DNA from: Deltaproteobacteria bacterium | GTDB taxonomy: Bacteria; Myxococcota; Kuafuiibacteriia; Kuafuiibacteriales; Kuafuiibacteriaceae | Length of the DNA stretch: 64,000 nt | Assembly (NCBI GenBank): GCA_040218735.1 | Contig: JAVJQW010000023.1 | Span: forward strand, 480,001 to 544,000 | Direction: 5' to 3' | Part shown: in pieces, positions 33,683 through 50,598 of the stretch | How the letters are laid out: the number at the start of each line of letters is the position of its first letter | Position numbering within the stretch: the stretch's first letter is position 1 | Notes under the pieces: model-generated | What the model saw: only the letters and a program-made list of their open reading frames with translations | Told to the model about the DNA's origin: nothing | Database searches by the model: none | Position numbers and translations under genes: made by a program

Positions 33683-33714
33683 GGCGATTCTCCTGGTGTC
33701 CTCGAGACAGGGGG

Positions 33715-34818
33715 TCAGCGACCGGCGGTTCCGGTCAGGTCGTTACCGGCGCTGTCGACGATCGAGCCGACGCCATCGCCATCGTCCGAGAACGACATCA
33801 CGACGAACTGGTTGTAGCCGGTGATGCCGGCGGTATCCTGGACGACCGATTCGAAGTCCGCGACGGCTTCCTCGAGCGCGGCGCGCGGGACCTCGAAGGT
33901 CCGGCCCGACCACGGGTCGTTGATGATGAAGTTCCCGTCCTCGTAACCGGTGATCACGATGTAGTGCGTGGTCGCGTTGGCGCGCTCGGCGTCGCTGAGC
34001 TCGACGCCCATCGCGTCCATCACCGAGAGGAAGCTGACGGACATCATCACGGGGTCACCCGCGGCGAGTGCGTTCATCGTGACGGTGATGATCTCGTTCA
34101 CGGAGCTCGCCGGATTTGCGTTGAAGGTGCGCGGCCCGAGGAGCTCGACCACGTCGAGCCCGTACGCCGCAGCGACGCGTTCGATGTGGTTGTACTGAGA
34201 GCCGTCGGCGGAGGTTCCGATCTCCCCGGCGAGGGTGTCGATCCGGGCGGCGTTGTCGTCACCGTCGACGTCGATGCCGAAGCCCTGCAGCACCATCAAG
34301 AGCGCGGTCGGTCCGCAGTTGCTCGCGCGGTTCTCGCTGTCGCTGGCGAGCTGACTGATCGCGGGGAACGAGCCGGCGTCGTACGGGCCGATGACCTCGC
34401 CCCACTGCTCCTCCTCGACGTCATTGACGGCGTCGGCGACCGCGTTGACGAAGCTCGCCGGAATCGCGATCGACTCGGGCTCCACCTCTTCGTCGTCCTC
34501 CGCGTCCGCCTCGACCTCGGCTTCGGTCGGCAGGAGGATCGAGGCCGGAGGCGCCTGGCCGACGATCGCTCCGGTCGCGCCGCCGATGAGCGTGAAGTCG
34601 AACGAGACGTCGCTGCCCGACAGCTGGACGTTGACGTTGCGCGTGAACCCGTCCTCGAGCCCGATGCGAAGCTCGACCTCGGAGATCTCCCCGTTCCCGT
34701 CGAGATCCAGGTCTCGGGGATCGTCGGTGATGATCGTGATGATCTCGGGCTGGTCGTCCCCGTCGAGGTCGACGTCCAGGTTGACGGTGTAGCTGTTGTT
34801 GTCGATCGGCGAGGTCAT
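33715..34818 (-). CDS. C39-like cysteine peptidase with N-terminal EF-hand-like Asp-rich motifs
   Basis: Motifs NCGPTALLMVL and THYIVITGYEDGNFIINDPW. DLDGDD and DLDGNGEISEVE loops. No signal peptide. Confidence 0.8.
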   Translation of the reverse strand: MTSPIDNNSYTVNLDVDLDGDDQPEIITIITDDPRDLDLDGNGEISEVELRIGLEDGFTRNVNVQLSGSDVSFDFTLIGGATGAIVGQAPPASILLPTEAEVEADAEDDEEVEPESIAIPASFVNAVADAVNDVEEEQWGEVIGPYDAGSFPAISQLASDSENRASNCGPTALLMVLQGFGIDVDGDDNAARIDTLAGEIGTSADGSQYNHIERVAAAYGLDVVELLGPRTFNANPASSVNEIITVTMNALAAGDPVMMSVSFLSVMDAMGVELSDAERANATTHYIVITGYEDGNFIINDPWSGRTFEVPRAALEEAVADFESVVQDTAGITGYNQFVVMSFSDDGDGVGSIVDSAGNDLTGTAGR

Positions 34819-34832
34819 GACCCCCGACCTTC

Positions 34833-34847
34833 TCAAGAACCTTGCCA
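34833..34847 (-). promoter_or_regulatory. Possible sigma54 promoter of the peptidase/amidase pair
   Basis: Minus strand reads TGGCAAGGTTCTTGA. The -24/-12 spacing is correct but the -12 box is TTGA rather than TTGC. It lies 14 bp upstream of the ATG at 34818. Confidence 0.4.
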
Positions 34848-35047
34848 ACGCCCGGGGGGCGTTCAGCGGGGAGCTGCCGTGGGCAGGTCCGGCGGACGTG
34901 CAGCCCAATCGGGGCAGGGCCTCCGTAGCTGCACACTGGGGCGGCAACGCCCGAAGCCGCGATCCCACGCGGGCGCGGCCGAAACGGCGTCGCGCAGAGA
35001 CACCTCAGCCGCGGGCGCTCTGGGAGGGGCCTCTTGGCGGAAGAAGG

Positions 35048-35242
35048 CTATCCGATGCGTTCGCCGCTGACGGTGGTCTCGGCGTTGTCCTTGATGTGCT
35101 GGAGCGCGGCGACCACGGCGGCTGCCACGGCCTCGGCGAACGGCTCCATCGCTGCGACATTGCCATCCGGATAGGACTCCGACAACTGCTGCAATACGGC
35201 TTCACGTGCCCGTTGCCGAGCCACATCTAGATTCATCGACAT
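35048..35242 (-). CDS. Small helical hypothetical protein (64 aa)
   Basis: Normal amphipathic composition (FAEAVAAAVVAALQHIKDNAET) in an otherwise empty intergenic gap. Confidence 0.6.
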   Translation of the reverse strand: MSMNLDVARQRAREAVLQQLSESYPDGNVAAMEPFAEAVAAAVVAALQHIKDNAETTVSGERIG

Positions 35243-35323
35243 CGTCGACGATGCGTCTTACTCGCTCCCCGAGCGTTTGTCTGTACACGTATTCCGATCA
35301 AGACTCCCGCGCCGGGGTGTTGG

Positions 35324-36337
35324 ATGACGGAGGCGGGGGCGGGGTCGTCGTATCGACGCATCGAATCGGAAGAAGAGGTCGACTTCGCGGAGCTCGGACT
35401 GATCGGCGGCGACCCGAGCTTTCTGCATTGTCTGTCGCTCGCACGTAGGTTCTCGCGAGGCGTCGCTCCGATCCTCGTCTACGGCGAAACCGGTACCGGA
35501 AAAGAACTCATCGCACGTGCGATCCACTACGCCGGACCGCGCAGCGGCGGGCCGTTCGTCCCCGTCAACTGCGGCGGGATTCCGGAGTCACTCGTCGAGA
35601 GCGAGCTCTTCGGCCACGTACGCGGCGCCTTCACGGATGCCTACGCCGAGCAACGCGGGCTGGTTGCACTCGCCGACTGCGGAACGCTGTTCCTCGACGA
35701 AGTCGACAGCCTTTCACCCCGAGCGCAGACGGCGCTTCTGCGGTTCGTCCAGGACCGACGGTTCCGCCCGGTGGGTTCCGAACGCGATGCATCCGCCGAT
35801 GTCGCGCTCGTAACGGCATCGAACCGAAGCCTCGGCAAACTCGTCGAAGCCGGTCAGTTCCGACGTGACCTGTTCTTTCGCCTCGACGTCGCGACGCTCC
35901 GTGTCCCGCCGCTCCGTGAACGCTCGGGGGACATTCCCGATCTCTGCCGACACATCCTCGCGAAGCTAGGCGCAACGTATCGGTGTCCCGCGAAGATCAT
36001 CCACCCGCCCGACGCCCAACGTCTGCAGGAGCAACCTTGGGTTGGCAACATCCGCGAGCTCGAGAACCGACTGCACCGCGCCTGGCTCGTGAGCGACGGA
36101 CCGTACCTCGAGTTCGAGTGGGAGACGGCGCCGGACGAGCCTCACGCCGAGCTCGATCTCAAGAAGGTCAAGCGCGAGGCCGTCGCCGCGGCGGAGCGTC
36201 GTGTCCTGTTGGCGCTGATGAAGCGTACGCAGGGCAACGTATCGCGCGCTGCCGCGCTCGCCCAACACGAACGGCGAGCGTTCGGTCGCCTCCTCAAGAA
36301 ACACGGAATCGATCGAAACGAGTTCATCAAGCGATGA
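35324..36337 (+). CDS. Sigma54-dependent transcriptional activator (bEBP) lacking an N-terminal sensory domain
   Basis: Motifs GETGTGKE, FVPVNCG, ESELFGHVRGAFTDA, GTLFLDEV, FRRDLFFRL, WVGNIRELEN and C-terminal HTH (GNVSRAA). Confidence 0.92.
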   Translation: MTEAGAGSSYRRIESEEEVDFAELGLIGGDPSFLHCLSLARRFSRGVAPILVYGETGTGKELIARAIHYAGPRSGGPFVPVNCGGIPESLVESELFGHVRGAFTDAYAEQRGLVALADCGTLFLDEVDSLSPRAQTALLRFVQDRRFRPVGSERDASADVALVTASNRSLGKLVEAGQFRRDLFFRLDVATLRVPPLRERSGDIPDLCRHILAKLGATYRCPAKIIHPPDAQRLQEQPWVGNIRELENRLHRAWLVSDGPYLEFEWETAPDEPHAELDLKKVKREAVAAAERRVLLALMKRTQGNVSRAAALAQHERRAFGRLLKKHGIDRNEFIKR

Positions 36338-38289
36338 CGGCCGCGACCGACCGCGGAATGGCGCTCGAGTGGGATCGTCTGCACCAGATCCTCGTCGATG
36401 CAGCGAGCGGCTCATCGAGCTCGGAGGAGGTCGCCCGAATCGAGGATGCGCTTCGACCGCTGGGGAGCCCGCTACGTTCGCTCGGCGCACGCTTCGAGCT
36501 GACCGGGTTCGAACGCGACACACTCCTGCTCGCCTTGTCCGTCGAAGCATCACTCGACTCGGCACGAAACGTCGCGTCCCTCAATGCGCCACGGGACTCC
36601 GCGCTGGTCACCGTTGACCTCGCGCTCCGGTTGTTCGCCCCCGGCGGCGATCACCGAAGACGTGGCCGAACCGCGCTCGGCCCTGACGGGAAGCTCTTCG
36701 CCGAGGGGTTGCTCGAGTGGGCGGGGCCTGCGTTTGGTTCTCACCTCGCCCGACCCTTCCGAGTCACGCGCGTAGTGTTGGAGCACTTCCTCGCGGACGT
36801 GACGTCGATACCGTCGGGATGTCGAATGCTCACGGACGGAGAAACGGCGCCCGAAGCTCAGGGACTGGCCGCAGCGCTGTCGGCCGACGCCAACCCACCG
36901 ATCACGATGGTCGTCGGTACGATCGCCGCCGAACCGGAGGTCACGGCCCTCGCTGTCTCGAGCGCGCTATCGCGGCCGATGCTCGTCGTGGATCTCGACG
37001 AGGCGGAGGAAGCCGAGGTCGACCCAGTCGCAGTGAGGGCTCGGGCGCGCCTCGAGCGCGCGACCGTCTACCTACGTCACGTCTGGAGATCGCCGGCCCG
37101 CCTTCGGTGGGTTCGCCGTGTGAGCTACGGGGCGCCGATCTTCGTCGAGACACGCCCGGATGACGATTGGTCCTGGAGCACGACGCGGCTCGCGGTGACC
37201 GCGATCCACTGCTCGGAACCGGACACTCGCGCGCGCGTCGAACGATGGCGTGCCGTCCTTCGTGAGAGTGAAGTCACCATCGACGACGCCCTCATCGACG
37301 AGGTTGCGACCAGCTTCGTCCTCTCGCGCGAGCAAGTGAGACTCGCGGTTGGGCACGCGCGCGTCGCGACCGCCGCGGAACGGGGGCTCACGGACACACT
37401 CGACGCCGAGGAGCTCCGCGCAGCGTGCCGAGCCCGACTCGATCATGACCTCGCCGCCGTGGCGACGAAATGCGAGCGACGCCAAACGTGGGACGATCTC
37501 GTCCTCCCCGACGTCACAAAGCGACGACTTCACGACTTCGTCCATGCACTGAAGCACCGATCGCTCGTCTTCGAGACGTGGGCGCTGGCGGACCGTATCG
37601 GAGGCACGACGGGGATCTCGGCGCTTTTCACCGGCGCGTCCGGTACGGGAAAGACGATGGCCGCCAGCGTCGTCGCGCGCTCGGTGGGATTGGACATCTA
37701 CCGAATCGATCTCGCGAGTGTCGTCAGTAAGTACATTGGCGAGACCGAGAAGAACTTGGACCGAGCATTCGGAGCGGCGCGCCGCGCCAGCGCCATCCTC
37801 TTCTTCGATGAAGCCGAGGCGCTGCTCGGAAAACGCTCGGAGGTGAAGGACGCACACGACCGGTACAGCAACATCGAAGTCGCGTATCTCCTTCAGCGAC
37901 TCGAAGCGCACCCAGGCGCGGTGATCTTCGCGACGAACCTCGCCAAGAACCTGGACGCCGCATTTGCGCGTCGGATGCACTTCGTCGTCGAGTTCCCTCG
38001 TCCGGATCCAAAGCTCCGTCTGGCGATTTGGCGTTCTCTGCTCTCGGACCGCGTCCCTGTCGCCGCCGACGTCGACCTCTCGGTTCTCGCGGAGCGATTC
38101 GAGACCACCGGGGGCGAGATTCGCAACGTCCTGCTGGACGCCGCCTTCCTGGCGGCGCGCGGCGGGCGCCCCATCTCGATGTCGAACCTGATGGTCAGCA
38201 TGGCACGCCATCTCCGGCAGGAGGGCCGCCTCCCGACCGCCTCGAGCTTCGGAGCGTTCCACGACGCCGTTGCGGAGGCGCTACTCTGA
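36334..38289 (+). CDS. eCIS-associated AAA+ ATPase (Afp15/Pvc15-like), copy A
   Basis: ATGA overlap with the bEBP gene. N-terminal FELTGFERDTLLLAL domain. Motifs WDDLVLP, ALFTGASGTGKT, VVSKYIGETEKNL, LFFDEAEALLGKRSEVKDAHDRYSNIEV and ATN. Confidence 0.9.
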   Translation: MTAATDRGMALEWDRLHQILVDAASGSSSSEEVARIEDALRPLGSPLRSLGARFELTGFERDTLLLALSVEASLDSARNVASLNAPRDSALVTVDLALRLFAPGGDHRRRGRTALGPDGKLFAEGLLEWAGPAFGSHLARPFRVTRVVLEHFLADVTSIPSGCRMLTDGETAPEAQGLAAALSADANPPITMVVGTIAAEPEVTALAVSSALSRPMLVVDLDEAEEAEVDPVAVRARARLERATVYLRHVWRSPARLRWVRRVSYGAPIFVETRPDDDWSWSTTRLAVTAIHCSEPDTRARVERWRAVLRESEVTIDDALIDEVATSFVLSREQVRLAVGHARVATAAERGLTDTLDAEELRAACRARLDHDLAAVATKCERRQTWDDLVLPDVTKRRLHDFVHALKHRSLVFETWALADRIGGTTGISALFTGASGTGKTMAASVVARSVGLDIYRIDLASVVSKYIGETEKNLDRAFGAARRASAILFFDEAEALLGKRSEVKDAHDRYSNIEVAYLLQRLEAHPGAVIFATNLAKNLDAAFARRMHFVVEFPRPDPKLRLAIWRSLLSDRVPVAADVDLSVLAERFETTGGEIRNVLLDAAFLAARGGRPISMSNLMVSMARHLRQEGRLPTASSFGAFHDAVAEALL

Positions 38290-38290
38290 G

Positions 38291-41200
38291 ATGGGCCCAC
38301 CGTCCAAACGAAAGGCCAAGGCGCTCGTCCCAAGCGGCGGTACACCACTCCCCGCGAAGACGCGTCGCCGCTTCGAGTCGGCGATGAACGTCGACCTCCG
38401 CGACGTCCGGACCCACGCTTCGCGCGACGTTGGTGAACATGGAGCGCGGGCCGTGACGATCGGGCGACACGTGTTCGGGCCTCCGAGCCTGTTCGCGCCC
38501 GATGCCAAAGACGACGTTCGAACCCTCGCCCACGAGCTGACCCATACGGTCCAGCAGCAGGAGCGCTCGCCCCACGGGGCGCTCGAGCGCACCGCGCCTC
38601 GCTCGCTCGAAGAGCGCTACGCCCGCCGCGTCGCCGACGTCGTCTCGACGGGCCGCCCCGTCGATCCAGCGTGGCTTCGGTATCGATCACCTCGCGCGTT
38701 CGTCGCCTACGACGACGAACCCACCGATGCGGATCGCGCCGCGGCCGCGGACCTTCGCCTCGCGGTTCAGGCCCGAGACCAGGCGGCGGGACTTCGTGTC
38801 CTGCGAGCCAACACGGGCCCGGCGATGCACCGCGTTCGGGCGGCGTACGGCGAGGACTTCGTTCCGGACCTGCGCCAGCTCTTTCGCTACCGGGCCCGCC
38901 ACCCGAATGGGCTGAGCGACCTGATCCTCCGAACGGTGCTGCCGGCCGGAACCGAACCCTGGGGCGAGGCCCGCGCGCTCCTCGGTGACGCGCTCACCCT
39001 CGAAGAGGAGCTCCGGACGCTCGAGGGCATCATGAGCTGGAACGTCGCGGCGTTCTGGCGCGTCCTCGAAGAAGCCGACGACGAGCACGTGCTTCGGATG
39101 TTCGAGGCGCAGGGTGTCGAGCCCGAAGAAGGTGATCGACCTACGAGCAACCTGGCCGGTGTTCGGGCGCTGATCGAGAGCGCGCTCGGAGACTCGGAGC
39201 GCTGGCTCGCGAACAACGTCAACGTGCAGCGCGCCATGCGCATCCTGCTCGCGAAGGCAAACCGCGCCCGCGCGGCGCGACGGGCGCGCGGGGTCGAAGC
39301 GCCCCGGACCGATGGCGACGATGCCGACGACGGCCACTTCGACGACCCGCTCCTCGAGGCACACGTCGACCTCGTGTGGAGCCGAATCGTCGAGGCCGAC
39401 CGACGTTGGGGCCCAGCCTTCGAAGCCGAGCCGATGGCGTCCCGCGCGTACCTCGCGTTGGCCGACCTCGAGGCGATAGAACGTCGGGCGATCGGCGTCC
39501 GGATTCGTGCGCGGACGTGGTCCGGATTCGACAGCGATATCGTTGCGCGCCTCGAGGAGATCGCGGACGAGCGGGACGACGCGCAGGCGCTCTCGCTCGC
39601 GATGCGGCAAGCGCTCACTGAGCGCCACCACGACGCCTACGGAATGCAGCTCGCCACCGAGCGCGCCGGCACCCTCGTCCACCGTGCCCGTACTCGGGAC
39701 CTCGAGCGACCACCGACGCCCCCGGGCGTGGAGGTCCCGTCGTTCCTGGAGTTCGGCGCACCGCCGTCCGAAGGCTCGACGCGCGACATCCTCCACGACC
39801 CTGTGCTCCTCGAGCTCCTCCTCGATCACTCGGGGGAGCCGATGAACGTCGGAGGGCAATACATCGAGTGGATGCGCTCGATGGGAATGACGACGGGGGA
39901 GGTCGCCGAGTACCAGATGCGCGGTGTCGGAGACTTCGACGAGCTGTACACGGTCGTCGAGGGCGTTGCACCCGCCGAGCGCTTCAGTCTCGTTCACTTC
40001 AACGCCAACGGCCGGGCGGCGATGCAACGCGCCAACCTCACCGCCGAGCAGGACCGCATGATCTGGGCGCTCGTCAGTCAAGGCGGCCCTTCGCTGCTAC
40101 CGGGGCTCGACGCGGAGAACGACGGTCTCATCGCGGCTCGGCATCTTCTCGCGGCGGCACGCGAGGAACGACCTGACCGCGTCTTCGCCGTTCTGCGAAG
40201 CCTCGACGAACCCACCCGGACCGCGATGAGCCAAACCGAGGCCTACGCCGAGGCGCTCCGCCACCTGGAACGGAGCGACATCGAGGGACGCGTGCTCGCC
40301 GGGAACATCCGACGTGTCGTCCTGCGAGGCGAGCTGCAAGAAGCCCTCGAAGCGTACGCGATCCGACCGGGTACGACGCCGCGGATTCGCGACCGAAGCG
40401 CGTTCGCGGAGCTGATCTCCCACGAGCTCGACCAGGGCGGCGGACGAAGCCGGCAGGTCGAGATCCGTCGCGGTTTTGTCCTCCACCAGCGGAGCCTGCG
40501 CCACCCGGACCTCGAGCTCTCCACGGGGGATCAAGCGCTCGTCGACGCGTACCGTGACTACGCGAACTTCATCGAAGGCGAGGACAACGAGGACCAACAA
40601 CCCCTGTGGAACGTATTGCTCGGCGCGCCCCGCGTCGTCGGTGGCCAGCAGGACCTCGATCCCAACATGGAGGCGGACTTCATGTTCTACCGCCTCCAGC
40701 AATTCGCCGGTCTCCGCGGAGCCGCCGTCGCGCCCTGGGGTTGGGCCCTGCACGATCTCGACGAAGCCACGGTCGGGTTCACGGCGCTCTACGAACGTGT
40801 CCGGCCCGGCGGCGTCAGCCCCTCCGACCTCGCCGAGCTCGTGCTCCGCTACCACGCGGCGATCCGCGCGACCGAAGCCTACCGTGATGCGAACGAATCG
40901 CTGGCTTCGGACGTCGCGTCGATCGTGGCGTGCGTCGTCGGCGTCGCTGTCGTCACCGTGCTCAGCGGCGGCACGCTCGGACCGGTCGCGATCGCGGCCG
41001 TCGCCGGTCTCGCCGGCGGCTCTGCCGCGGCCATCACGGGAGCGGCGCTCCGGCACGAATCCAGCGGCGAAGACGTCGCCACCGACTTCGCGCTCGGCGC
41101 GGTGGAGGGAGCGTTGGCGATCACCGGCGAGGCCCTCGCGGCCCGAGCCGTTCGAGGTCTGGGCCTCGCCGCCGAGGGCGCGGCGGAGGTCGCGACGATG

Positions 41201-43195
41201 TCGGCCGGCGCGACAGCGCGTGCGGCGGGAACTCGCGCGATTCGAAGCACGGCTGCGCGCGGCGCCGAGGTCGCCGTGCGCGGCGCGATCGACGGGGCCG
41301 TCGGCGGCGCAGGGGGCGAGCTGTTTCGGTCGGCGCTCGACGAGGCCACGTGGGATCGGGGCGTCAGCGAAGCCATCGCCCGAATCTTCCAGGCGACGCT
41401 CCGCGGCGCCGCCATGGGCGCAACATTCGGTGGCGCGACCGGGGGGGTGATCTTCGGCGCTGGCGAGGCCTTCAATCGCGTCGCGTCACGTCACGGTACA
41501 CGCGCCGCCCTCGACATCCTCGGCGCCTTCGACGGTACGGAGCTCGGCGTCGGCTACGTCCGCGGATTGGACGAAGCGACGCAGGACGCCCTCTTCCGCG
41601 CGCGCGCAGCGCATAGCATCGGACGCGACGACATCGCCCGGGACCTGCTGACCCGCGAAGCGCGCCTCACTCCGACCGACGCGGACGAGATCCTCGATGC
41701 GCTGCGGGCGCGCGCCGATCTCGCCCGACGGGTCACCTCCGATATCGACCGCACGATCGACGACGATGTCGCCGCGGCGCTCGGTGACGAGCTCGGCGTA
41801 CCGATCCGGGTCGATTCGGATCTGGCCGGCCATCGGCACCGCATCGAGGTCGACTATCGCCTCGGCGTGTGGGGCTCGCCGGATGCGCTCACGATTCGCG
41901 TCGCGCCCGGCACTCCGGTGGGCGACGTCATCGCGCACCAGGCGGTCGTGCGTCGGATCCGCGATTTCGGCCGCGCCTCGCGCAGCTTCCGCGGCTTCTT
42001 CGAGCGCGCGCACGCGTTCTTGCGCGGCGCGAGCGACACGATGCCGCTCCGGGCGGAGCGCCTCGCCGAGCTCGACAAATACGGGCTGATGATCGAGGCC
42101 CGCCAGCGTGCGCTGACTGGAGAGGCGCTCTCGGACGAGCTCGCCGAGCGCCTCGAACGAGAGATCGCCGAGCTTCGTCGTTGGCGGGCCCACTTCGCCG
42201 AACAGCTCGACGAAGTCGGCGCAGGACAGGGGGTCATCCGCTCGGAGGGTGAGATGGACTTCTCCGAGGAAGCGATGCGCGCGCGATGGGAGCGCGACCT
42301 CGCCGAGCCGGATCTGATGGACGACGCGCTCCCGACCGTGACGGAGGCTCAGGACGCGGCTGCGACGTCGCGCTACCGCTATTCGTCATCGACGCAGCTC
42401 CCCGTCGGGACGACGGCGGACGAGGTCCGCGACGCGTTTCGCACGGTTCACTTCGACGGCCGCGGCGCAGAGAGCTTCGGTCAGTTCGAACACGAGTTGA
42501 GGTCGTACGTCGCCTTGGGCGTGATCAGCGAAGCCGACATCATGGAAGTCATCACTCGGCGCCTCAACGGAACGCAGGTCTCGGGCAGGGCCCGCGTGCT
42601 GGGCCCGATCGTTCGCGATGTCCGCCGCATGGCGCGTGCCTCTGCGCTCCGGGAGATCGAGGAGGGTTCACTCGATCTCCTCGAGGTGCTCGACGTTCTA
42701 CCGCCGTTCGGCAAGGGGGACGTGTTCGAGTCCTGGTTCTCACGTCACGGCGGACCCGGTATCGAACAGATCTCGGTCGACGCGCGGCGACTCCGAGAGC
42801 AAGGCCCCACCCTCGCGGGCGACCGTCGGATCGATCGCATCGAAGCCATCAACGGGGACGAGCTCGACGCCGCGACCGAGGACCGGATCCGTCGAATGCT
42901 CGCCGGCGACACGACGGCCGCTCAGGAAGGTCCGATCCCCAGCCTGCGCGTGCGCGAGCTCAAGGCCGGACGTTTCACCGGCGATCATCGCGCGCAGCTT
43001 CGCGACAACCTGCGTCTCCTTCGGCTCGGCGCCGTGAACGAAGTGAGCCTGACGATCACTCGGCTGGACGCGATCGACCCGTCGCAGCTCGCCTGGCTGC
43101 AGCGGCAACTCCGGAGGTACCGCGGTCAGTTCGTGATCGAGGTCGTCAACGGCCCACGAATCACCTCTTCCGCACAGCTCGGCAGGATGCGATGA
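38291..43195 (+). CDS. DUF4157 (eCIS core domain) polymorphic effector with hydrophobic translocation-like region and C-terminal PD-(D/E)xK nuclease-like domain
   Basis: N-terminal GTPLP..RRFE..DLRDVRTH..ARAVT.G..LAHELTHTVQQ. Central Gly/Ala hydrophobic helices. C-terminal GDVFE..RRID..RELK..AQL. Confidence 0.8.
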   Translation: MGPPSKRKAKALVPSGGTPLPAKTRRRFESAMNVDLRDVRTHASRDVGEHGARAVTIGRHVFGPPSLFAPDAKDDVRTLAHELTHTVQQQERSPHGALERTAPRSLEERYARRVADVVSTGRPVDPAWLRYRSPRAFVAYDDEPTDADRAAAADLRLAVQARDQAAGLRVLRANTGPAMHRVRAAYGEDFVPDLRQLFRYRARHPNGLSDLILRTVLPAGTEPWGEARALLGDALTLEEELRTLEGIMSWNVAAFWRVLEEADDEHVLRMFEAQGVEPEEGDRPTSNLAGVRALIESALGDSERWLANNVNVQRAMRILLAKANRARAARRARGVEAPRTDGDDADDGHFDDPLLEAHVDLVWSRIVEADRRWGPAFEAEPMASRAYLALADLEAIERRAIGVRIRARTWSGFDSDIVARLEEIADERDDAQALSLAMRQALTERHHDAYGMQLATERAGTLVHRARTRDLERPPTPPGVEVPSFLEFGAPPSEGSTRDILHDPVLLELLLDHSGEPMNVGGQYIEWMRSMGMTTGEVAEYQMRGVGDFDELYTVVEGVAPAERFSLVHFNANGRAAMQRANLTAEQDRMIWALVSQGGPSLLPGLDAENDGLIAARHLLAAAREERPDRVFAVLRSLDEPTRTAMSQTEAYAEALRHLERSDIEGRVLAGNIRRVVLRGELQEALEAYAIRPGTTPRIRDRSAFAELISHELDQGGGRSRQVEIRRGFVLHQRSLRHPDLELSTGDQALVDAYRDYANFIEGEDNEDQQPLWNVLLGAPRVVGGQQDLDPNMEADFMFYRLQQFAGLRGAAVAPWGWALHDLDEATVGFTALYERVRPGGVSPSDLAELVLRYHAAIRATEAYRDANESLASDVASIVACVVGVAVVTVLSGGTLGPVAIAAVAGLAGGSAAAITGAALRHESSGEDVATDFALGAVEGALAITGEALAARAVRGLGLAAEGAAEVATMSAGATARAAGTRAIRSTAARGAEVAVRGAIDGAVGGAGGELFRSALDEATWDRGVSEAIARIFQATLRGAAMGATFGGATGGVIFGAGEAFNRVASRHGTRAALDILGAFDGTELGVGYVRGLDEATQDALFRARAAHSIGRDDIARDLLTREARLTPTDADEILDALRARADLARRVTSDIDRTIDDDVAAALGDELGVPIRVDSDLAGHRHRIEVDYRLGVWGSPDALTIRVAPGTPVGDVIAHQAVVRRIRDFGRASRSFRGFFERAHAFLRGASDTMPLRAERLAELDKYGLMIEARQRALTGEALSDELAERLEREIAELRRWRAHFAEQLDEVGAGQGVIRSEGEMDFSEEAMRARWERDLAEPDLMDDALPTVTEAQDAAATSRYRYSSSTQLPVGTTADEVRDAFRTVHFDGRGAESFGQFEHELRSYVALGVISEADIMEVITRRLNGTQVSGRARVLGPIVRDVRRMARASALREIEEGSLDLLEVLDVLPPFGKGDVFESWFSRHGGPGIEQISVDARRLREQGPTLAGDRRIDRIEAINGDELDAATEDRIRRMLAGDTTAAQEGPIPSLRVRELKAGRFTGDHRAQLRDNLRLLRLGAVNEVSLTITRLDAIDPSQLAWLQRQLRRYRGQFVIEVVNGPRITSSAQLGRMR

Positions 43196-44160
43196 CGGTG
43201 CCCGTGCTGCCGATCTCGTTCGAGGCTCGAGATCTCCCCCGCCTCCTAACAGACGTGGTCACGACTTTCTGTTCGGGGCGAGCGCCCGACGCCATCGTGC
43301 AGATCGACTCCGATCTCGATCTCGCGCTCGTCGACGATTGGCCGGATCGGTACGCCCACCAAGAGATCGAGGTGACGTTCGGTTCGTCGGTACTCCAAAC
43401 CGACCCGGAGGACCGCGCCGTCATCGCCGAGCTGAATCTCCCCCTCGACCTCGAAGCGCTGCTCACGAGCCTCGAACGGATCGACTTCGAGACCGCCGTG
43501 GTCGGCGCGCTTCACGAGGAGTGGCTCGGGCGGGCCGGCGATCCGAGCTGGGGGATGTCGGGCGCGGGGCTTGGCTTCGGGCACCACCCGCACGGCTTCC
43601 TGACGGCATTCAAAGGCGACGGACACCGCCGACTGATGTCGAAACGCGCCGTCGACTACGGGCCTTGGCGTGTGATCCGCCGCGGAGACCTCACCGCGCT
43701 ACAGTTCCACGCGATCGATGCCGACCCCGCAACGGCCCGCGCGCAGGCGCTTCCGGCGCACCGGTGGCTCGGCTACAAGGTGCAGGATCCGGGCGTCGTC
43801 CTGTTCGGGGAACACCACGTCTACCACCACGACCTTCGCGGCTTCTACGACGTGGAGACCCGCACGTATCGCATCCTCGTCGCGGGTCGGCCGGTCCCGC
43901 TCCAGGAGATGAACGACGCGCGTGAGCTCATGGAGAAACGTCGGCGCGACGGCGACGATGTCATCGACCGCCTCGCGTTTGTCTTTGCGTACGAGGCCGA
44001 GGCGAGAGCTCACCTCCATGAACTTTGGCTTCGAGGGCTCGAGTGCCGCGTCACGACACCGTCGGCCGACGAGGTGCAGCTCGACGCGAGCTACACGCCG
44101 CCGCCCCCGAACCCACCGGAGTGGGTCGCGAGGTTGGAGTCCAACGAAGGTGCCGGCTGA
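43192..44160 (+). CDS. Putative cognate immunity protein
   Basis: ATGA coupling to the effector stop, cytoplasmic 322-aa protein. Assignment is by position only. Confidence 0.55.
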   Translation: MTVPVLPISFEARDLPRLLTDVVTTFCSGRAPDAIVQIDSDLDLALVDDWPDRYAHQEIEVTFGSSVLQTDPEDRAVIAELNLPLDLEALLTSLERIDFETAVVGALHEEWLGRAGDPSWGMSGAGLGFGHHPHGFLTAFKGDGHRRLMSKRAVDYGPWRVIRRGDLTALQFHAIDADPATARAQALPAHRWLGYKVQDPGVVLFGEHHVYHHDLRGFYDVETRTYRILVAGRPVPLQEMNDARELMEKRRRDGDDVIDRLAFVFAYEAEARAHLHELWLRGLECRVTTPSADEVQLDASYTPPPPNPPEWVARLESNEGAG

Positions 44161-46142
44161 AACCGCTGCAGGGTGATGCGATCCAGCATTCGGCCGTCGC
44201 GACGGAGATGACGGGTCGCTGCATCCAGGAGGTCGCGCATTCGGAGCGAGCGCTGCTCGCGCGCTGCGGCGAACGCCGCGTCCACCGCGATGTTCCTGAT
44301 CTGCCCACCGGACGCCTCGAAGCCATCCGCGAGCAAGTCGATCAGGACGTCGTCGTCGAGCGGAATTCCGCGCCCCAACGTGCGCTGCCAGATGCGGCGT
44401 CGTAGCTCGGCGTCCGGCATCGGGAACTCCAAAGCAAACTGGATGCGGCGCGTGAACGCCGCGTCCATGTTCTTCGCGAGATTCGTCGCGAACACGACCG
44501 GGCCCGCGTGTCGCTCGATACGCTGCAGGAGGTATGCGACCTCGATGTTGCTGTAGCGGTCGCGCGCATCCTTGACCTCCGACCTCTTCCCCAGGATCGC
44601 CTCGGCCTCGTCGAAGAACAGCAGCGCATTCGACCGGCGCGCGGCCTCGAAGACACGGTCGAGGTTCTTCTCGGTCTCTCCGATGTACTTGCTGACGACG
44701 CCGGCGAGATCGACACGATACAGATCGAGGCCGACCTCGCTTGCAGCAACACCCGCGGCCATCGTCTTGCCCGTCCCCGACGGACCGGCGAACAGGGCGC
44801 ACACCCCCGCGTTGCGCCCGGCGGCACCACCGACGCCCCACTCGACGAAGACCCGGGCCCGGTGGCGAATCGCACTCACGAACGCCTCGAGCCGTTCGCG
44901 CGTCGCGTCGGGGAGCACGAGGTCGTCCCACGGATCGGTGTCCGTGCCGCGCACGGCGAGACGCCCCAACTCGTGCTCGAGGCGAGAACGGCAGGCGGCG
45001 GTCAGCGCCGACTTCGACGTACCGCGATCGACACGGAGGGACACCGCGGCCTCGCGAACGGCATCAACGACCTGGGCGTCCGAGAGCTCGTACGTTCGCG
45101 CGATATCCTGAAGGTCCGACTCGTCGAGGTCACACGGCGTCGCGTGGATCGCCCGGCGCCATTGCTCGACGCGCCCCTCGAAGCTGGGCGGTGAGAGTTT
45201 CAAGACGTGGGCGGGCGCCCCGAGGGACGAGAGCCGCCACGCGTCGTCCGGGTCCGTGTCGACGAAGACCGGGCCCCCCCACGCGAGGGCGTCGATGTCA
45301 GCGGCGATCGAAGCGGACGACCACAACCCGCGCACGTAGAGCGCGGCATCGTCGAGCCGCGCACGTAGACGAATGCTCCTCAGAGCCGTCACCCGGTCCG
45401 CTCCGGTCGGCAGACGCCCGAGGTCGACGCTCAGCAGCGGTTGGGTCCGATGCGCCGCGATGTGCGCGGCAGCGCCGAAGGTATCGGCCACAGCGCCGCC
45501 GATCAGAACCACGATGGCCGGCGCCGTGCCGTCGGCGAGTGCGCCCGCGAACGCTTCGAGCCGCGAGGCATCTTGATGCCCCGTGAGCTCCAATGCGGGC
45601 GGGCGAATGCAGCCCTCGGGAGCGCGGTACGGAGCACCCTCGAGCGCCTCGACGACCAGCGGCGCCGCGGTGAACGCGTCCAGCAACGTCGAAGCGTGAT
45701 CCTCGGTCCGTCGAACCAATAACCCCTCGGTGAACAAGCGGCGCTCCGGACGAAGCATCGCGCGGGCCGCCGCGCGGTCGTCGGGCTCGAACACCGCGAG
45801 GGCCAGGTCGACCGTCGCGTGCCCCCGGTAGGGATCGCCGGCCAAGTGGGCGTAAGCCGCCACGAAATCGACATCGAGCTCGGGGGCGAGCGCGAGCAAC
45901 AACACGTCCCGCTCGAAAGGGACGAGCCCCATCGCCGCGCCCAGCCTTCGCACGGGACTCGACGATGCGGCGAGCGTCGCCTCGACATCCGAGATCGCGT
46001 GGACGAGCTCCGTCGGGACCGCGTCCGGCACGACGCCGCCGAACACACGTTCGAGCGGCCCGGCGCGGCGCGTCCAGGCCGTTCGCCTCAGTAGAAGGAG
46101 GAGTCGCTCGAGCTCGAGCGCAGTATCCGGCGCGTAGTTCAT
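44091..46142 (-). CDS. eCIS-associated AAA+ ATPase (Afp15/Pvc15-like), copy B
   Basis: Start MNYAPD. Motifs GLVPFERDVLLLALAPELD, WDDLVLP, ALFAGPSGTGKT, VVSKYIGETEKNL and LFFDEAEAILGKRSEVKDARDRYSNIEV. Last gene of the structural operon. Confidence 0.9.
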   Translation of the reverse strand: MNYAPDTALELERLLLLLRRTAWTRRAGPLERVFGGVVPDAVPTELVHAISDVEATLAASSSPVRRLGAAMGLVPFERDVLLLALAPELDVDFVAAYAHLAGDPYRGHATVDLALAVFEPDDRAAARAMLRPERRLFTEGLLVRRTEDHASTLLDAFTAAPLVVEALEGAPYRAPEGCIRPPALELTGHQDASRLEAFAGALADGTAPAIVVLIGGAVADTFGAAAHIAAHRTQPLLSVDLGRLPTGADRVTALRSIRLRARLDDAALYVRGLWSSASIAADIDALAWGGPVFVDTDPDDAWRLSSLGAPAHVLKLSPPSFEGRVEQWRRAIHATPCDLDESDLQDIARTYELSDAQVVDAVREAAVSLRVDRGTSKSALTAACRSRLEHELGRLAVRGTDTDPWDDLVLPDATRERLEAFVSAIRHRARVFVEWGVGGAAGRNAGVCALFAGPSGTGKTMAAGVAASEVGLDLYRVDLAGVVSKYIGETEKNLDRVFEAARRSNALLFFDEAEAILGKRSEVKDARDRYSNIEVAYLLQRIERHAGPVVFATNLAKNMDAAFTRRIQFALEFPMPDAELRRRIWQRTLGRGIPLDDDVLIDLLADGFEASGGQIRNIAVDAAFAAAREQRSLRMRDLLDAATRHLRRDGRMLDRITLQRFQPAPSLDSNLATHSGGFGGGGV

Positions 46143-47638
46143 GACTTCATGGCCTCCAGTCTCACGACGACGTCGGGTCGCCACGACAGCCTGAGCTCGA
46201 TGTCACAGAGCCGAGTCATCCGCACCACCACGTGCAGTGGCGGCCGTGCGACCTCGACGAGGATCTCACCGGGCGCGTAGGAGACGCGCCCGGGGACATC
46301 GAGGACGTTCTGCCACACAAAGGCCGGCGACGAGGCACCGAAGCCGATCAGCCGGGCGGCGACCCTCTCCACGCACCAGCGACTCGCGGCGCGCACGGCC
46401 TCGACCGGTGCCTTGGGCGTCGCGTCGTCCACGATGCGCATCGGGCACTGCACGGCGAGCCACTGCATCGCTTCCGTCGGTCCGACGCCGCCCCCTACGC
46501 CCATCATGTTGCGAAGCGGCGGATCCTCGAAGAGCGTCGGCCACGCCTCTCCGGCGGCAAACGCGACGACGAACAATCGACAAAGGGCGTCGGCAGCGAC
46601 GTCGCCACACGACGCCCAATCCTCGGCGACACCGTCGAGGTCGAGCGCGTCCACGAACGGGAGCAACATCATCGCGCCCCCAGCGCGCGTGAGCTCTCGC
46701 GTCGGCGACGTGCGCTTGGGGCCGTCGCCCGCGCCCGGTCGGTGCGGTTCGAGACCGGCCGCAGTGCGGAGCACGCGAAGCAGCGAAGGCGGCACGTCGG
46801 CTGCGTTCACGTCGTCGGCGAGAGCAGGAGACGGCGGGTCCTCCATCGCTCCGGACGGGGTCCGCTCGGTGCTCGTCGCCTGCTGAGCGATCAAGCGCTG
46901 GGCCTCGCGTACCCATCGCACCACGGCCGCACTGACCGAACCGCCGGACGCGGCGTACGCGACCACGATCGATGCCGTCGCTCGCCACGAAGTCAGGCGT
47001 GTGCGCGGCAGCGACAACGATTCGGAGGCCAGCACCTCTGCGACCGTGTCTGGCGCGGGCGAAGACGTCGTTGGATCGATCCATCCCTCGACCCAAAGGC
47101 GAGCGTCACGCTCCGTGACGACATCCACCACCTTCGAACGCACCGTGCGATCGAGCGTTTGCCACGCCGCCATCCCCAGCTCCCGATCGGCGGTGAGGGC
47201 CGTCCGTATCGCCGGTGAGGTCGGGACGACGCGGAGCCCGTCGAAACGCCGGAGGAACCAGGCCCCCTCATCGCCGAAGGCGCGACGCTGCACGTACGCC
47301 GCAAGCTCGTGCGCCGGACTCTCGAAGCGCACCACGTCCTCTCCTCCCCCGGCGAGCATGGCCAGCAAACGCTTCGCGATCGCGACGGCCCAAACCTCCG
47401 CCTGCTCGCGCGGCGGGAGGCTCGCGTCGAGATCGAAGTCGAGCTCCAGCCGCCGAATCGCGATCACCTCGCCCCGGTCGGGGAGCGCGAGCGCATCGAG
47501 CACCCGCGCGAGCGCATCACACAACCGTGTCTCGACGACGTCGTCGAGGCGACGACGGAGCCCTTCGCGATCCGGATGATCACGAGCGACGAGATACTCC
47601 GCCGAGAGCCGGCGCACTGCGACTTCGTAGCCTGACAT
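46139..47638 (-). CDS. Putative CIS tape-measure protein (Afp14-like)
   Basis: Lies between the fibre gene and the ATPase. N-terminal IAIRRLELDF, internal GGAMMLLPFV and C-terminal PPLHVVV..LSW resemble CIS tape-measure motifs. Confidence 0.6.
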   Translation of the reverse strand: MSGYEVAVRRLSAEYLVARDHPDREGLRRRLDDVVETRLCDALARVLDALALPDRGEVIAIRRLELDFDLDASLPPREQAEVWAVAIAKRLLAMLAGGGEDVVRFESPAHELAAYVQRRAFGDEGAWFLRRFDGLRVVPTSPAIRTALTADRELGMAAWQTLDRTVRSKVVDVVTERDARLWVEGWIDPTTSSPAPDTVAEVLASESLSLPRTRLTSWRATASIVVAYAASGGSVSAAVVRWVREAQRLIAQQATSTERTPSGAMEDPPSPALADDVNAADVPPSLLRVLRTAAGLEPHRPGAGDGPKRTSPTRELTRAGGAMMLLPFVDALDLDGVAEDWASCGDVAADALCRLFVVAFAAGEAWPTLFEDPPLRNMMGVGGGVGPTEAMQWLAVQCPMRIVDDATPKAPVEAVRAASRWCVERVAARLIGFGASSPAFVWQNVLDVPGRVSYAPGEILVEVARPPLHVVVRMTRLCDIELRLSWRPDVVVRLEAMKS

Positions 47639-50598
47639 CAGCCGTCGAGGCGCTTCTCGAGCGCCGCCAGGCGGGCCTCCATCGCGTCGAGACGCTCCGC
47701 CATCTTGGCCGCGACGGCGCGCGTTCCACCGGGGTCGACCGCGACGAGGCAACGCACCCTTCGCACCTCTTCACTCGCGTCACCGTCGATCGCTCGGCCG
47801 ACGACTCGCGAGAGGTCGCGAGGTCGCAGATCTTCCTCCTCGATCGCGGTCGCACATCCGTCGTGGTCGCCGGACGCGACCAAGAGCATCCCGGCGCGAA
47901 CCGGGCCCCGGGTTCGAACGTCGACCTGCCCTAGGAACGCCACCAGCGCGTGTCGCTGACGATCGTCACCAGGGTCGTTGCCCGCGACCAAGGCCTGGTC
48001 CGTGACGACCGCGACCGCGGACGACGCGCCGATCCGGCGCGACGCCCCTCGCGCCCCGAAGCACACGACATCCCCCGGCTCGAGCGCCTCCGACGGGTCG
48101 GCCCGCGGAACCCACTCGGCATAGTCGGCGCCGGGCCCCGTGACTCGCACGCTCCCGCCGAACCCTTCGATGCGGCCGACGGGCCCCCCCGTACCGAAGA
48201 ACGTGACGAAGTTGTTGTTCCCGTTTGGAGCCGCGCGGTTCACACGTAGCGCGAGGACACTCGACGTCCCCGTGTTGCGGTTTTCGATGAACGCCACGTG
48301 GTCGTTGGTGCTCGAGCCGTCTCCAGGCCGGTCGTCGCGAACGTGAAGACGGTTGGCCGGCGCCACCGTACCGACCCCGACGTCGGCGCCCGCACACGCC
48401 ACGGCGGCGAGTCCGCGACTCACGAGTCGCATCGTATCCGTCGCACGATCCAGCTCGAGCCGTCCCCGTTCGACGCCGGCGATCGACATGCGAAGATCCG
48501 GGTCGCCCCCGCCCGAAGAGTCCAGCACCAGCTCCGGGTTGGGGTTGCGGACGTGAATCGACACGTTCGGCGCGCTCGTACCCACCCCCAACCGACCCTG
48601 ATCAGTGATCACGACGCGCTCTTCCTCCGGCCGCGTCTCATGGATCGTGACGTCACCGCCACGCGGCCGGAGATGAAGCCGATCGCGCTCGCAGGACAAG
48701 GCGGTGACACCGTCGTGCTCCAGCTCCGTCTGTTGAGAAGCGCGACTCCACGTGAGCTTGCTCTTCTGCGTTCGGTCGTCCTGGAACCGAACGGCGGGTG
48801 AGTAGATCGACCCCGGCAGACAGTCGAGGATGACGTCGGGATCGTCCGCGTGCACCTCGATCGCTACGAGCGGGTTCTCGGTGCCGATGCCGAAGTACCC
48901 GCTGGGGAGGATGACGACGTGTGACGACATCGCGGCCAACGCCTCGTGGAAGAGAATCGTTCCGTCGCCATCGACCGTGACGTGATTCCTCGAACCGGCT
49001 CCGAAGCGAAGTTTGTCCTCGTCGTGGAAGTAGTCGACGTAGCCCCGATGGCGTTGGTCGCCCGCGGTACCGTCCGCGAAGTGGATGTGTCCGGCCGCGT
49101 TCGATCCGCTCTTGATCGTGAGCCCCGAGTTCTCGTCGTCGCGCGCGATGACGAGGTCGGACGCGGTCGGATCGAACGCTCCCGGATCGTCCGTGCCGAC
49201 GCCGACGCGCTGCCGATCCGGGTTCGTCACGAAATGGACGAACTCTCGAGAGTCGGTCGCAAAGCTCATCCCATTGTCCGCGTGGTCGTAGACGATGCGG
49301 CCACGCTTCGCGTTCGGATCTCCGGGCCCGTCGCCGAAGAAGAGGTTGCTCGTCTTGGCCGCACCCGCGGAGATCGTGACGCCAGTGTCCCCGGCGCCGT
49401 TCACGACGAGATCGTCGGCGGCCCCGTCGAACGCCGTGGGATCGGGCGCACCGATTCCAACCTTGCCTCCCCCGGTGACCACCACCTTCGGGGCGAGTGG
49501 ATCTTCGGGCGGGTCGGCCTGGTTGCCGATGACGAGGCGGTTGTCGTCGGGGTTGGCGTCGTCGGCACGACCAATCGCGAGCTCGAGATCCTCACCGCCC
49601 AGTCCGCCGGCCGCGGCGCGCCGGAGGAAGAGCGGTACGTCGCGCGTACGTCCGCCGTCGGCGCGGAACTCGACGCTCGTACCCCACATGCGCACGTGGC
49701 CGAGGCCCCGGAGGTTGCCTTCGACCCAGACGAGGTCCTCCACGCCTACGGGCTCGTCGGCGCTGGCCGGGTCCGCAGGATCCGGACCGGTGAGGTCCTG
49801 CTGCTGCACCCGATGCCCCGCGCAGAGCTGTTCGGTCGTGAGGAGAGGATCGGTCGGCGCCGTGCGGGAGCGCAGACGGATCAAACCGTCTGCGGCCTGC
49901 ACACCTTCGACGACGACGCCGGCGTAGACACGAATTCGTCGAGCGTCGAGTTTGTCGACGGGGAGCGGTTTGACGAACTGCCCAGTCCCGCCGGGCGGCC
50001 CGGCCTGCCAGCGCACGATCCCGATGGGCACCAACCACTCGGGCGGCTTGTCGTCCGGCGGGAAGTCCTGGTGGGGGACCGACGCGTCGCAGAGGACCAG
50101 GTCCCGATCTTCCAAGAGGTCGCGCGGATCGCTCTCGAGCACCCCCGCGACCTCGACGCCTCCCTGCTGTTGGATGAACGGCCGCGACCCCACGACGATC
50201 TGGGTCGCCTCGTGGATGCGGATGAACTCGTCCGCCGCTCGGCAGACTTCGAAGCCCGGTCGCACCGTTCGCCCCGGCGTCTCGACGAGGCGAAGCCATA
50301 CGGGATAGGCACCGTCGCCCTGCCCATCCAGCGCCGAAATGGGAATGGGTTTCGGCGCCATCACCATCAACGTGCGACCGTACCCATCCCACGCCAGGCC
50401 CGGGCTGACGACGATCTCGATCGTCGACTCACGTTCGATCAATTCGATGTCCAGGCCCATCGCGATGCCCCAGGTGTGGCCGGCGAGTGCGTGGCGGCGC
50501 AGGGCGCTGCGGGTGTAGTCGAGTAGCGCTTCGAGATCCTGGGCGCTCAGGTACTGCCCCTCGAAGAAGCTCGGTCGTTCCTCGAAGACCGCCGACAT
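47638..50598 (-). CDS. eCIS tail fibre protein (Afp13-like) with C-terminal intramolecular chaperone-like domain
   Basis: Repeated G.[VL]G[IV]GT..P....[HD] fibre repeats, GADYAEW..LEPGDVV..GQV.V chaperone-like domain, and terminal coiled coil. Confidence 0.75.
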   Translation of the reverse strand: MSAVFEERPSFFEGQYLSAQDLEALLDYTRSALRRHALAGHTWGIAMGLDIELIERESTIEIVVSPGLAWDGYGRTLMVMAPKPIPISALDGQGDGAYPVWLRLVETPGRTVRPGFEVCRAADEFIRIHEATQIVVGSRPFIQQQGGVEVAGVLESDPRDLLEDRDLVLCDASVPHQDFPPDDKPPEWLVPIGIVRWQAGPPGGTGQFVKPLPVDKLDARRIRVYAGVVVEGVQAADGLIRLRSRTAPTDPLLTTEQLCAGHRVQQQDLTGPDPADPASADEPVGVEDLVWVEGNLRGLGHVRMWGTSVEFRADGGRTRDVPLFLRRAAAGGLGGEDLELAIGRADDANPDDNRLVIGNQADPPEDPLAPKVVVTGGGKVGIGAPDPTAFDGAADDLVVNGAGDTGVTISAGAAKTSNLFFGDGPGDPNAKRGRIVYDHADNGMSFATDSREFVHFVTNPDRQRVGVGTDDPGAFDPTASDLVIARDDENSGLTIKSGSNAAGHIHFADGTAGDQRHRGYVDYFHDEDKLRFGAGSRNHVTVDGDGTILFHEALAAMSSHVVILPSGYFGIGTENPLVAIEVHADDPDVILDCLPGSIYSPAVRFQDDRTQKSKLTWSRASQQTELEHDGVTALSCERDRLHLRPRGGDVTIHETRPEEERVVITDQGRLGVGTSAPNVSIHVRNPNPELVLDSSGGGDPDLRMSIAGVERGRLELDRATDTMRLVSRGLAAVACAGADVGVGTVAPANRLHVRDDRPGDGSSTNDHVAFIENRNTGTSSVLALRVNRAAPNGNNNFVTFFGTGGPVGRIEGFGGSVRVTGPGADYAEWVPRADPSEALEPGDVVCFGARGASRRIGASSAVAVVTDQALVAGNDPGDDRQRHALVAFLGQVDVRTRGPVRAGMLLVASGDHDGCATAIEEEDLRPRDLSRVVGRAIDGDASEEVRRVRCLVAVDPGGTRAVAAKMAERLDAMEARLAALEKRLDG

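Follow-up and report, generated by a model that had tools for sequence, protein, structure and literature searches.

Extracellular contractile injection systems (eCISs) such as Photorhabdus PVC, Serratia Afp and AlgoCIS encode an ATPase (Pvc15, Afp15 and Alg15, respectively), and to our knowledge each of these characterised loci carries one copy of it. According to the available portion of a preprint on AlgoCIS, loading of Cgo1 and Cgo2 depends on Alg15 and on its ATPase activity, and Alg15 is absent from the particles (10.64898/2026.05.27.728243); Pvc15, as far as the accessible text of PMC11495950 describes it, is likewise needed for cargo loading and absent from particles. The accessible part of Geller et al. 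2021 (PMC8213781) describes long eCIS-associated toxins (EATs) headed by DUF4157, presented there as a core domain of eCISs, and split eCIS loci, with parts of one eCIS encoded away from the core operon, appear in the portion of Chen et al. 2019 available to us (PMC6899500). Here, we analyse a 64,000-nt stretch of DNA (the window; positions 480001-544000 of contig C9 in the 11.6-Mb genome of a Deltaproteobacteria bacterium, GCA_040218735.1, a soil-type myxobacterium), in which an Afp15/Pvc15-family ATPase (ATPase A) and a DUF4157 effector (T) are encoded in an operon converging on an eCIS structural operon that ends in a second ATPase of the same family (ATPase B). The region is best explained as an accessory payload operon of an Afp/PVC-like eCIS.

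ATPases A and B share the domain plan of Pvc15, Afp15, and Alg15, with PF22977 and a C-terminal AAA domain bearing Walker A and B motifs, and B also occupies the position of Afp15, following the tape-measure gene at the operon's 3′ terminus. Unlike in those systems, there are two sister copies, and one of them is placed apart from the structural genes, in an effector operon that has an activator of its own. A pair of ATPases in a single eCIS locus is not mentioned in the accessible text of PMC8213781, PMC6899500, PMC11495950, PMC11297309, and the AlgoCIS preprint, and a full-text literature search returned no such case, although supplementary tables may list such loci. As in split eCIS loci, at least as the available text portrays them (PMC6899500), parts are encoded apart from the core operon, but here the structural operon retains its own ATPase, and the accessory unit adds a second rather than holding the sole one.

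T resembles the EATs (PMC8213781) and Cgo1/Cgo2 of AlgoCIS, so far as the accessible texts describe them, in having an N-terminal DUF4157 domain with an HExxH motif, a linker of >1,000 residues, a C-terminal toxin domain, and an eCIS-adjacent gene. It differs from them in having only ~18 residues before DUF4157, in the translational coupling of its gene to that of its own ATPase, and in a C-terminus whose only relatives proved to be giant myxobacterial toxins with annexin repeats. The product of the next gene, a 322-aa protein, invites comparison with the TseT-TsiT pair of the Pseudomonas aeruginosa type VI secretion system and with Imm52-type proteins (7dym, 9owg, 7drg, and 4rho): its residues 1-204 superpose on them, and its gene likewise directly follows that of a polymorphic toxin. 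In contrast to TsiT and Imm52 proteins, to which it has no detectable sequence similarity, it carries an extra C-terminal domain of ~100 residues, and its partner is an eCIS rather than a type VI secretion effector.

Two sister ATPases in convergent operons

Four plus-strand genes, coding for a sigma-54-type activator, ATPase A, T, and the 322-aa protein, are tightly coupled: the activator and ATPase A genes overlap by ATGA, T starts 1 nt past the ATPase A stop, and the 322-aa gene overlaps the T stop by another ATGA. On the minus strand, ATPase B is joined to the tape-measure-like gene by the same kind of overlap. The 3′ ends of the ATPase B and 322-aa genes overlap by 70 nt, so the plus- and minus-strand units converge, and ATPase A lies 5.8 kb from ATPase B in the adjoining operon. 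An earlier note on this DNA had described four coupled plus-strand genes converging on ATPase B, and this layout is borne out with exact coordinates (Table 1).

Both ATPases match the N-terminal winged-helix domain (WHD; PF22977) and AAA (PF00004) above the Pfam cut-offs, A with 55.3 bits (9.1e-15) and 81.8 bits (7.6e-23), and B with 61.9 bits (9.1e-17) and 80.4 bits (2e-22), respectively. A has FERD at residue 59 in its winged-helix domain, then a middle domain that is degenerate, and at the C-terminus an AAA domain whose Walker A and Walker B lie at 436 and 490; the equivalent positions in B are 76, 455, and 509. Walker A (SGTGKT), Walker B (FFDEAE), and FERD are intact in both. The proteins are identical at 280 of 641 positions (44%; E 1e-149), and identity is unevenly spread over 50-residue windows of A, reaching 80-82% in the AAA core (451-550) and 23-44% over residues 1-350; in the AAA core, both match the family consensus at 77-86% of positions. 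The earlier note's view that the two share the FERD domain and have diverged middles holds, and its description of the AAA cores as near-identical is better replaced by highly similar. The GxxGxGR-type motif of the middle domain (the first, degenerate nucleotide-binding domain) is lost in both A and B and is kept by their eight nearest relatives.

A and B are reciprocal best matches in a database of 5.8 billion proteins (A to B, 484 bits with the next best at 424; B to A, 481 bits with the next best at 445; next-best identity 41-45%). A phylogeny of both ATPases, which the earlier note had proposed, was built several ways, and they are sister paralogs in every tree: FastTree on 153 rows gives SH-like support of 100, IQ-TREE mixture-model quick trees on 40 and 31 rows give SH-aLRT of 100, and a careful IQ-TREE search (LG+C20 PMSF, 40 rows) gives ultrafast bootstrap (UFBoot) and SH-aLRT values of 100. 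The pair is nested among the metagenome proteins P0121, P0122, P0005, and P0045. On this phylogeny, A and B arose by duplication within their own lineage, and their long end branches place the split deep. A search for orthologs of A in 30 relatives, including a 75%-complete genome of the same genus, returned AAA-domain matches only.

In the lineage nearest A and B, the gene order is tape measure, ATPase, DUF4157 effector. At the locus described here these two links are divided between the copies: B retains the tape-measure link within the structural operon, and A retains the effector link in a separate unit coupled to the activator.

Frequency of the two-ATPase arrangement

We surveyed eCIS ATPase loci comprising the best 80 of 584 genome-contig and the best 80 of 586 metagenome-contig confirmed candidates, which is not a random sample, with flanks of at most 10 kb. 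Their six-frame open reading frames (ORFs) were scanned with purpose-built profiles, and 159 of the 160 loci have an N-domain match. A DUF4157 gene directly follows the ATPase gene on the same strand in 49/130 loci with at least 1.5 kb of downstream sequence; the same order is found in 11 of the 19 loci whose ATPase, like B, is directly preceded by a tape-measure homolog, and in 18 of the 69 where Pvc16 or sheath genes lie downstream. The ATPase is directly preceded by a sigma-54 activator in 7/110 loci with enough upstream sequence, all seven being of the type in which the ATPase heads the operon. Given the 49/130 and 7/110 counts, the activator-ATPase and ATPase-DUF4157 adjacencies are ordinary eCIS features.

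The ATPase and its effector also behave as a separable module. Of 72 loci flanked on each side by 6.5 kb or more, five showed no structural marker, and in the three of these that were run through Pfam (L034, L079, and L106), an ATPase and a DUF4157 effector stand among unrelated genes; in 3/72 loci, then, the ATPase is paired with a DUF4157 gene and the surrounding 6.5-10 kb contains no detected structural gene. The earlier note had suggested surveying how often such cassettes occur with or apart from eCIS loci, and these counts come from such a survey.

A second ATPase is present in only one of the 159 loci (1/66 when at least 8 kb is available on both sides). This locus, L081 (8861-17697), is from a Clostridia metagenome-assembled genome, and its second ATPase, broken into two ORFs, one with WHD and one with AAA, lies 4.5 kb downstream of the first; genes for an unknown protein of 584 aa and for one that is YbjN-like precede it. 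Across the phylum, 401 genomes were scanned with two candidates scored in each; 82 gave a match, and the only genomes with a same-locus ATPase pair are this one and G354 (2/82). In G354, another myxobacterium (L172 6873-16251), a DUF4157 gene and an ATPase gene converge on Pvc16, ATPase, and DUF4157 genes of the other strand; the first ATPase has a frameshift between WHD and AAA, is not sister to the neighbouring ATPase, and sits on a branch of 2.05. Both loci with an extra ATPase also have an extra candidate-cargo gene adjoining it, a second DUF4157 gene in G354 and the 584-aa and YbjN-like genes in L081. The two-ATPase layout is rare, not unique. The earlier note had rated the locus the best candidate in the window for an undescribed system, which is overstated, as neither the components nor the way they are paired is out of the ordinary for an eCIS; the ATPase duplication and the separate convergent operon are what is unusual.

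The effector T

T begins with an 18-aa basic leader followed by DUF4157/eCIS_core (PF13699), which spans residues 19-91 (4.8e-18; score 65.5 bits, cut-off 22) and in which the HExxH motif is HELTH at residue 81. The rest of T consists of a long linker, then a region that is hydrophobic and rich in Gly and Ala, and finally a nuclease-like domain at the C-terminus. The hydrophobic stretch spans residues 869-920 (Kyte-Doolittle >1.5 at 869-902) and leads into a segment with 39-49% Gly+Ala. By hhalign, residues 873-1620 of T, which take in this membrane-type region and the C-terminal domain, align with a profile of four ~1,350-aa toxins with 98.2% probability (E 3e-14).

In an alignment of 11 C-termini (T and its homologs), a histidine, an aspartate (RRID), and a RELK motif are invariant, corresponding in T to H1401, D1515, E1556, and K1558 (11/11 sequences). 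The predicted nuclease core is broken by an insert of ~30 residues. The AlphaFold2 model of the C-terminal part has a mean predicted local distance difference test score (pLDDT) of 63.8, with 75-86 in the core, where the secondary structure follows the alpha-beta-beta-beta-alpha-beta order typical of PD-(D/E)xK nucleases. A Foldseek search with this model gave a best E of 0.15; with VIA-align, restriction-type nucleases fill nearly all the top rows, BamHI coming first with Z 6.4 over 130 residues at a root-mean-square deviation (rmsd) of 4.0, which is below the trust level of ~8. Sequence searches were uninformative: pieces of T run against Pfam with E up to 1 produced nothing beyond noise, a comparison of the C-terminus with PDB chains found none below E 0.1, and a word-index search with residues 1100-1634 (535 aa) returned only the query from an index covering proteins of 898-2,860 aa. 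The C-terminal domain of T is probably a nuclease of the predicted PD-(D/E)xK type.

The earlier note had called the DUF4157 protein a toxin, and the hhalign match to toxins paired with the same partner family, together with the invariant D...ExK residues, upholds this. It is well supported by sequence comparison that T is a polymorphic toxin-type effector, with a body shared with non-eCIS toxins and a head that would address it to the eCIS.

A second DUF4157 giant, T2, is encoded ~7 kb past the right end of the window (stretch L009 7199-11647; contig C9 551199-555647), divergently from Pvc16, and a 120-aa ORF after it overlaps the T2 stop. T and T2 share the DUF4157 head and the Gly/Ala-rich region (34% over T 795-1034, E 4e-12) and differ in their C-termini; the hydrophobic Gly/Ala-rich region is common to T, T2, and the annexin-repeat toxins. 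The basic leader of T2, ~30 residues from the ATG at L009 7199, is like that of T in size and charge.

The 322-aa partner protein

The 322-aa protein, for which there is an alternative GTG start at residue 22, belongs to a family without established annotation: none of 59 members matches Pfam at E up to 1 or NCBIfam at E up to 0.01, and the protein itself has no PDB chain below E 0.1 by sequence and no usable match in the ESM Atlas, where a single-sequence model has a pLDDT of 0.40. An exhaustive HMMER search yielded 306 representative relatives, 253 of them below 1e-10, and AlphaFold2 with an alignment of 59 relatives gave a model with pLDDT 93.3 and a predicted template-modelling score (pTM) of 0.90. 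The top Foldseek matches to this model are PA0821, BPSL2088, chain B of the TseT-TsiT complex, and an Imm52-domain immunity protein, with a probability of 0.99. VIA-align recovers 7dym_B, 7drg_A, 4rho_A, and 9owg as a set, with Z scores of 8.9, 8.7, 8.6, and 8.4 over 174-196 aligned residues (rmsd 4.7-5.2), and the next row falls to 4.8. TseT is a nuclease.

The family is present in 11 of the 401 genomes of the phylum, this one included, and in all ten others (L184-L187, L173-L182) a homologous toxin C-terminus is encoded directly upstream of the 322-aa homolog on the same strand. At four loci that were enlarged, the upstream toxin is ~1,350 aa, and annexin repeats were found in 3/3 of those run through Pfam; apart from these repeats, the toxin-immunity family has no Pfam or NCBIfam match. 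The earlier note's suggestion of an immunity gene is thus sustained by a modelled fold and by a gene order repeated in ten of ten genomes: the 322-aa product is very likely the immunity protein of T, with a predicted Imm52/TsiT-like fold. From the same two lines of evidence, we infer that it binds the T C-terminus.

The activator and promoter searches

The first gene of the operon codes for a sigma-54-type activator (Sigma54_activat 193.7 bits against a cut-off of 20.2, 2.4e-57; AAA_lid_14 7e-15) with no sensor domain before the AAA+ domain. The latter begins at residue 27 and carries its Walker A, GETGTGK, at residue 54; the C-terminal HTH_8 match is weak (19.5 bits, below the cut-off of 22). 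Among ten activators checked, those of L049 and L157 are similarly short.

Sigma-54 target promoters have a -24/-12 element consensus. An element of this kind, TGGCAT-N5-ATGCA, lies at L009 7084-7099 (+), ~100 nt upstream of the ATG at which T2 likely starts, and a weaker one at L009 6935-6950 (-), upstream of Pvc16; matches to the pattern in L009 are at chance level (4 against 3.5 expected). A sigma-70 promoter scan of 34800-46400 found 0 sites. A terminator-like hairpin of 11 pairs lies at 44440-44467 (+), 280 nt past the 322-aa stop and inside the ATPase B coding region, and by its sequence could mark the end of the effector-operon transcript.

The structural operon and other features of the genome

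Because the G+C content of the window is high (~70%), genes were picked by third-position G+C and domain matches; the features are collected in Table 1. On the minus strand, Pfam identifies a complete complement of contractile-tail genes, with gp25, Baseplate_J, Tail_P2_I, gpV spike, gpD hub, LysM-tube, tube, and sheath, and the structural operon also includes large, fibre-like proteins without assignment. Past the window, it continues through a second sheath-like gene (1,100 aa) to Pvc16, and the ~1.2 kb between these two genes (L009 4855-6047) is without an ORF of high third-position G+C. The tape-measure-like protein scores 20.6 bits against CIS_TMP, under the cut-off of 27.8, and a jackhmmer search from it shows that related loci have a homolog directly upstream of their ATPase.

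Table 1. Coordinates of the payload and structural genes within the 64,000-nt window.
Feature	Coordinates	Strand	Size	Basis and remarks
Activator (bacterial enhancer-binding protein, bEBP)	35324-36337	+	337 aa	Pfam Sigma54_activat; ATGA overlap with ATPase A
ATPase A, Afp15/Pvc15-family	36334-38289	+	651 aa	Pfam WHD and AAA
Effector T, DUF4157	38291-43195	+	1,634 aa	Pfam eCIS_core
Part of T, hydrophobic then Gly/Ala-rich	40895-41515	+	residues ~869-1075	Kyte-Doolittle, composition, hhalign
Part of T, predicted PD-(D/E)xK-type core	42698-43120	+	residues ~1470-1610	Motif alignment, AlphaFold2, VIA-align
322-aa protein, probable cognate immunity protein of T	43192-44160	+	322 aa	Fold and gene order
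ATPase B, Afp15/Pvc15-family	44091-46142	-	683 aa	Last gene of eCIS structural operon; Pfam WHD and AAA
Tape-measure-like protein	46139-47752	-	537 aa	Directly upstream of ATPase B; jackhmmer homologs
Remaining eCIS structural operon	47638-64000	-		Pfam; runs past the window to Pvc16, contig 550048-550662

A second eCIS locus lies ~30 kb further on along the same contig (C9 ~579500-606000; L010 and beyond), with Pvc16 at 605428-605937 and tube genes at 602202 and 599636; a further tube match is on contig C20. This locus has its own divergent and more distant ATPase, ATPase C (583570-585576), followed by a 1,336-aa protein without a family. We considered whether A could be the ATPase of this second complete eCIS and rejected it, since with ATPase C in place A is surplus to both loci. 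The 1,336-aa protein was also considered as a relative of T, and rejected in the absence of BLASTP similarity.

Next to the payload operon, 32291-34968 (-) codes for a Peptidase_C39_2 protein (417 aa) and a 463-aa protein with a weak Amidase_6 match, which may be part of the same lower-G+C island (~66%, against 70% in the flanks) as the cassette. A small ORF of high third-position G+C (35048-35257, -; ~64 aa from the first Met) sits between the genes for the C39-like peptidase and the activator, divergent from the latter. Elsewhere in the window, 11306-13546 (+) codes for a 746-aa protein with 12 matches to Pfam Stig1 (stigma-specific STIG1-like, Cys-rich; E 7e-64), adjoining an extracytoplasmic function (ECF) sigma factor gene.

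A model for the two ATPases and its alternatives

We propose that the duplication parted two ancestral ATPase links, that to the tape measure passing to B and that to the effector passing to A. A, T, and the immunity gene now make up a convergently reading block under an activator of its own, and A would be co-produced with T. A could then act as an unfoldase and loader that reads the short basic leader and DUF4157 head of T and threads T into the tube, and B would serve the structural operon, either in assembly or tape-measure handling or by loading T2 from the other flank; the immunity protein would shield the producer from the T nuclease domain. Published loader data for Alg15 and Pvc15, as far as the accessible accounts go, make a loader role of the family credible. 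By analogy with them, we tentatively propose that A is co-expressed with T as a loader and unfoldase matched to this cargo, and give this a little short of an even chance.

Several observations weigh against this proposal. The GAFTGA loop contacts sigma-54, and in the activator it is GAFTDA at residue 101, a variant also found in the activators of L049 and L022 among the ten checked. The sigma-54 promoter pattern is at chance level in the window (14 matches against 11.8 expected). In AlgoCIS, according to the available text of the preprint, DUF4157 is dispensable for loading and a disordered N-terminal domain is the signal (10.64898/2026.05.27.728243), which calls for caution about A reading DUF4157, and T has only ~18 residues ahead of that domain. 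The terminal branches of A and B are long (0.96 and 1.07) and the composition of A deviates from the alignment, which leaves room for relaxed selection on one copy; the frameshifted, long-branch second ATPase of G354 shows that such duplicates can decay. Best-match sampling, flanks of at most 10 kb, and the scoring of two candidates per genome may also have undercounted double-ATPase loci.

A could instead be an equivalent spare of B, supplying more loader when the effector operon is on. The 80-82% identity of the AAA cores, with catalytic motifs intact in both proteins, agrees with this, and one ATPase does suffice in most eCIS loci (65/66 with at least 8 kb on both sides). Such an exchangeable pair is nevertheless unlikely: the first 350 residues, outside the motor, are 23-44% identical, and each copy has accumulated ~1 substitution per site since the split, a divergence that would be unexpected if the copies had been kept interchangeable. 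We think it quite improbable that A is the product of an inversion or partial duplication of the operon's 3′ terminus, left decaying or idle while B serves the effector. The ancestral order of tape-measure, ATPase, and DUF4157 genes in 11/19 tail-type loci, a convergent layout that fits an inverted 3′ block, and the frameshifted second copy in G354 all suit such an origin, but the 651-codon frame and the Walker motifs of A are intact, the gene is coupled on both sides, and an unselected copy at this divergence would be expected to show stops or frameshifts.

The hydrophobic stretch of T (residues 869-920) raises a further alternative, in which A works on the producer side as a chaperone that keeps a membrane-active T unfolded or inactive, or extracts it from the membrane, without loading particles and possibly with another exit route for T. 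Homologous toxin bodies in the ten other genomes lack DUF4157 and are far from eCIS ATPase matches, as such a route would allow; T, however, has a DUF4157/eCIS_core head, reported as highly eCIS-specific in the accessible text of PMC8213781 (odds ratio 2614), and its gene adjoins the eCIS operon, and we regard a purely producer-side role as very unlikely. Less probable still is that A and B co-assemble as hetero-hexamers and work as a single machine built from both kinds of subunit. As sister paralogs whose AAA cores are closely alike they could do so, and both have lost the middle-domain GxxGxGR-type motif that the eight nearest relatives keep, but their genes lie in different convergent transcription units, apparently under different control.

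The division of labour that the earlier note had inferred, with each ATPase handling different cargo or with one for assembly and the other for loading, is a plausible hypothesis. It would be a further step to suppose that Afp15-family ATPases in general are cargo-matched loaders that travel with their cargo, the activator, loader, effector, and immunity genes forming a portable payload cassette that would plug into whichever injection particle is resident, with B devoted to the particle and tape measure and A to the effector; we hold this broader idea to be rather doubtful.

Implications

The role of the eCIS ATPase is still being worked out, with particle assembly, cargo recognition, and unfolding all under consideration, and the answer bears on the re-programming of particles for protein delivery. 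The diverged A and B, one linked to an effector and the other to a tape measure, amount to a natural separation-of-function experiment between building the particle and loading the cargo, and their N-domains, 23-44% identical, together with candidate cargoes on opposite flanks, are reagents for mapping cargo specificity. In addition, a family of ~300 representative clusters without a Pfam or NCBIfam model now has a predicted fold and a likely role, as the Imm52-like partner of giant myxobacterial toxins.

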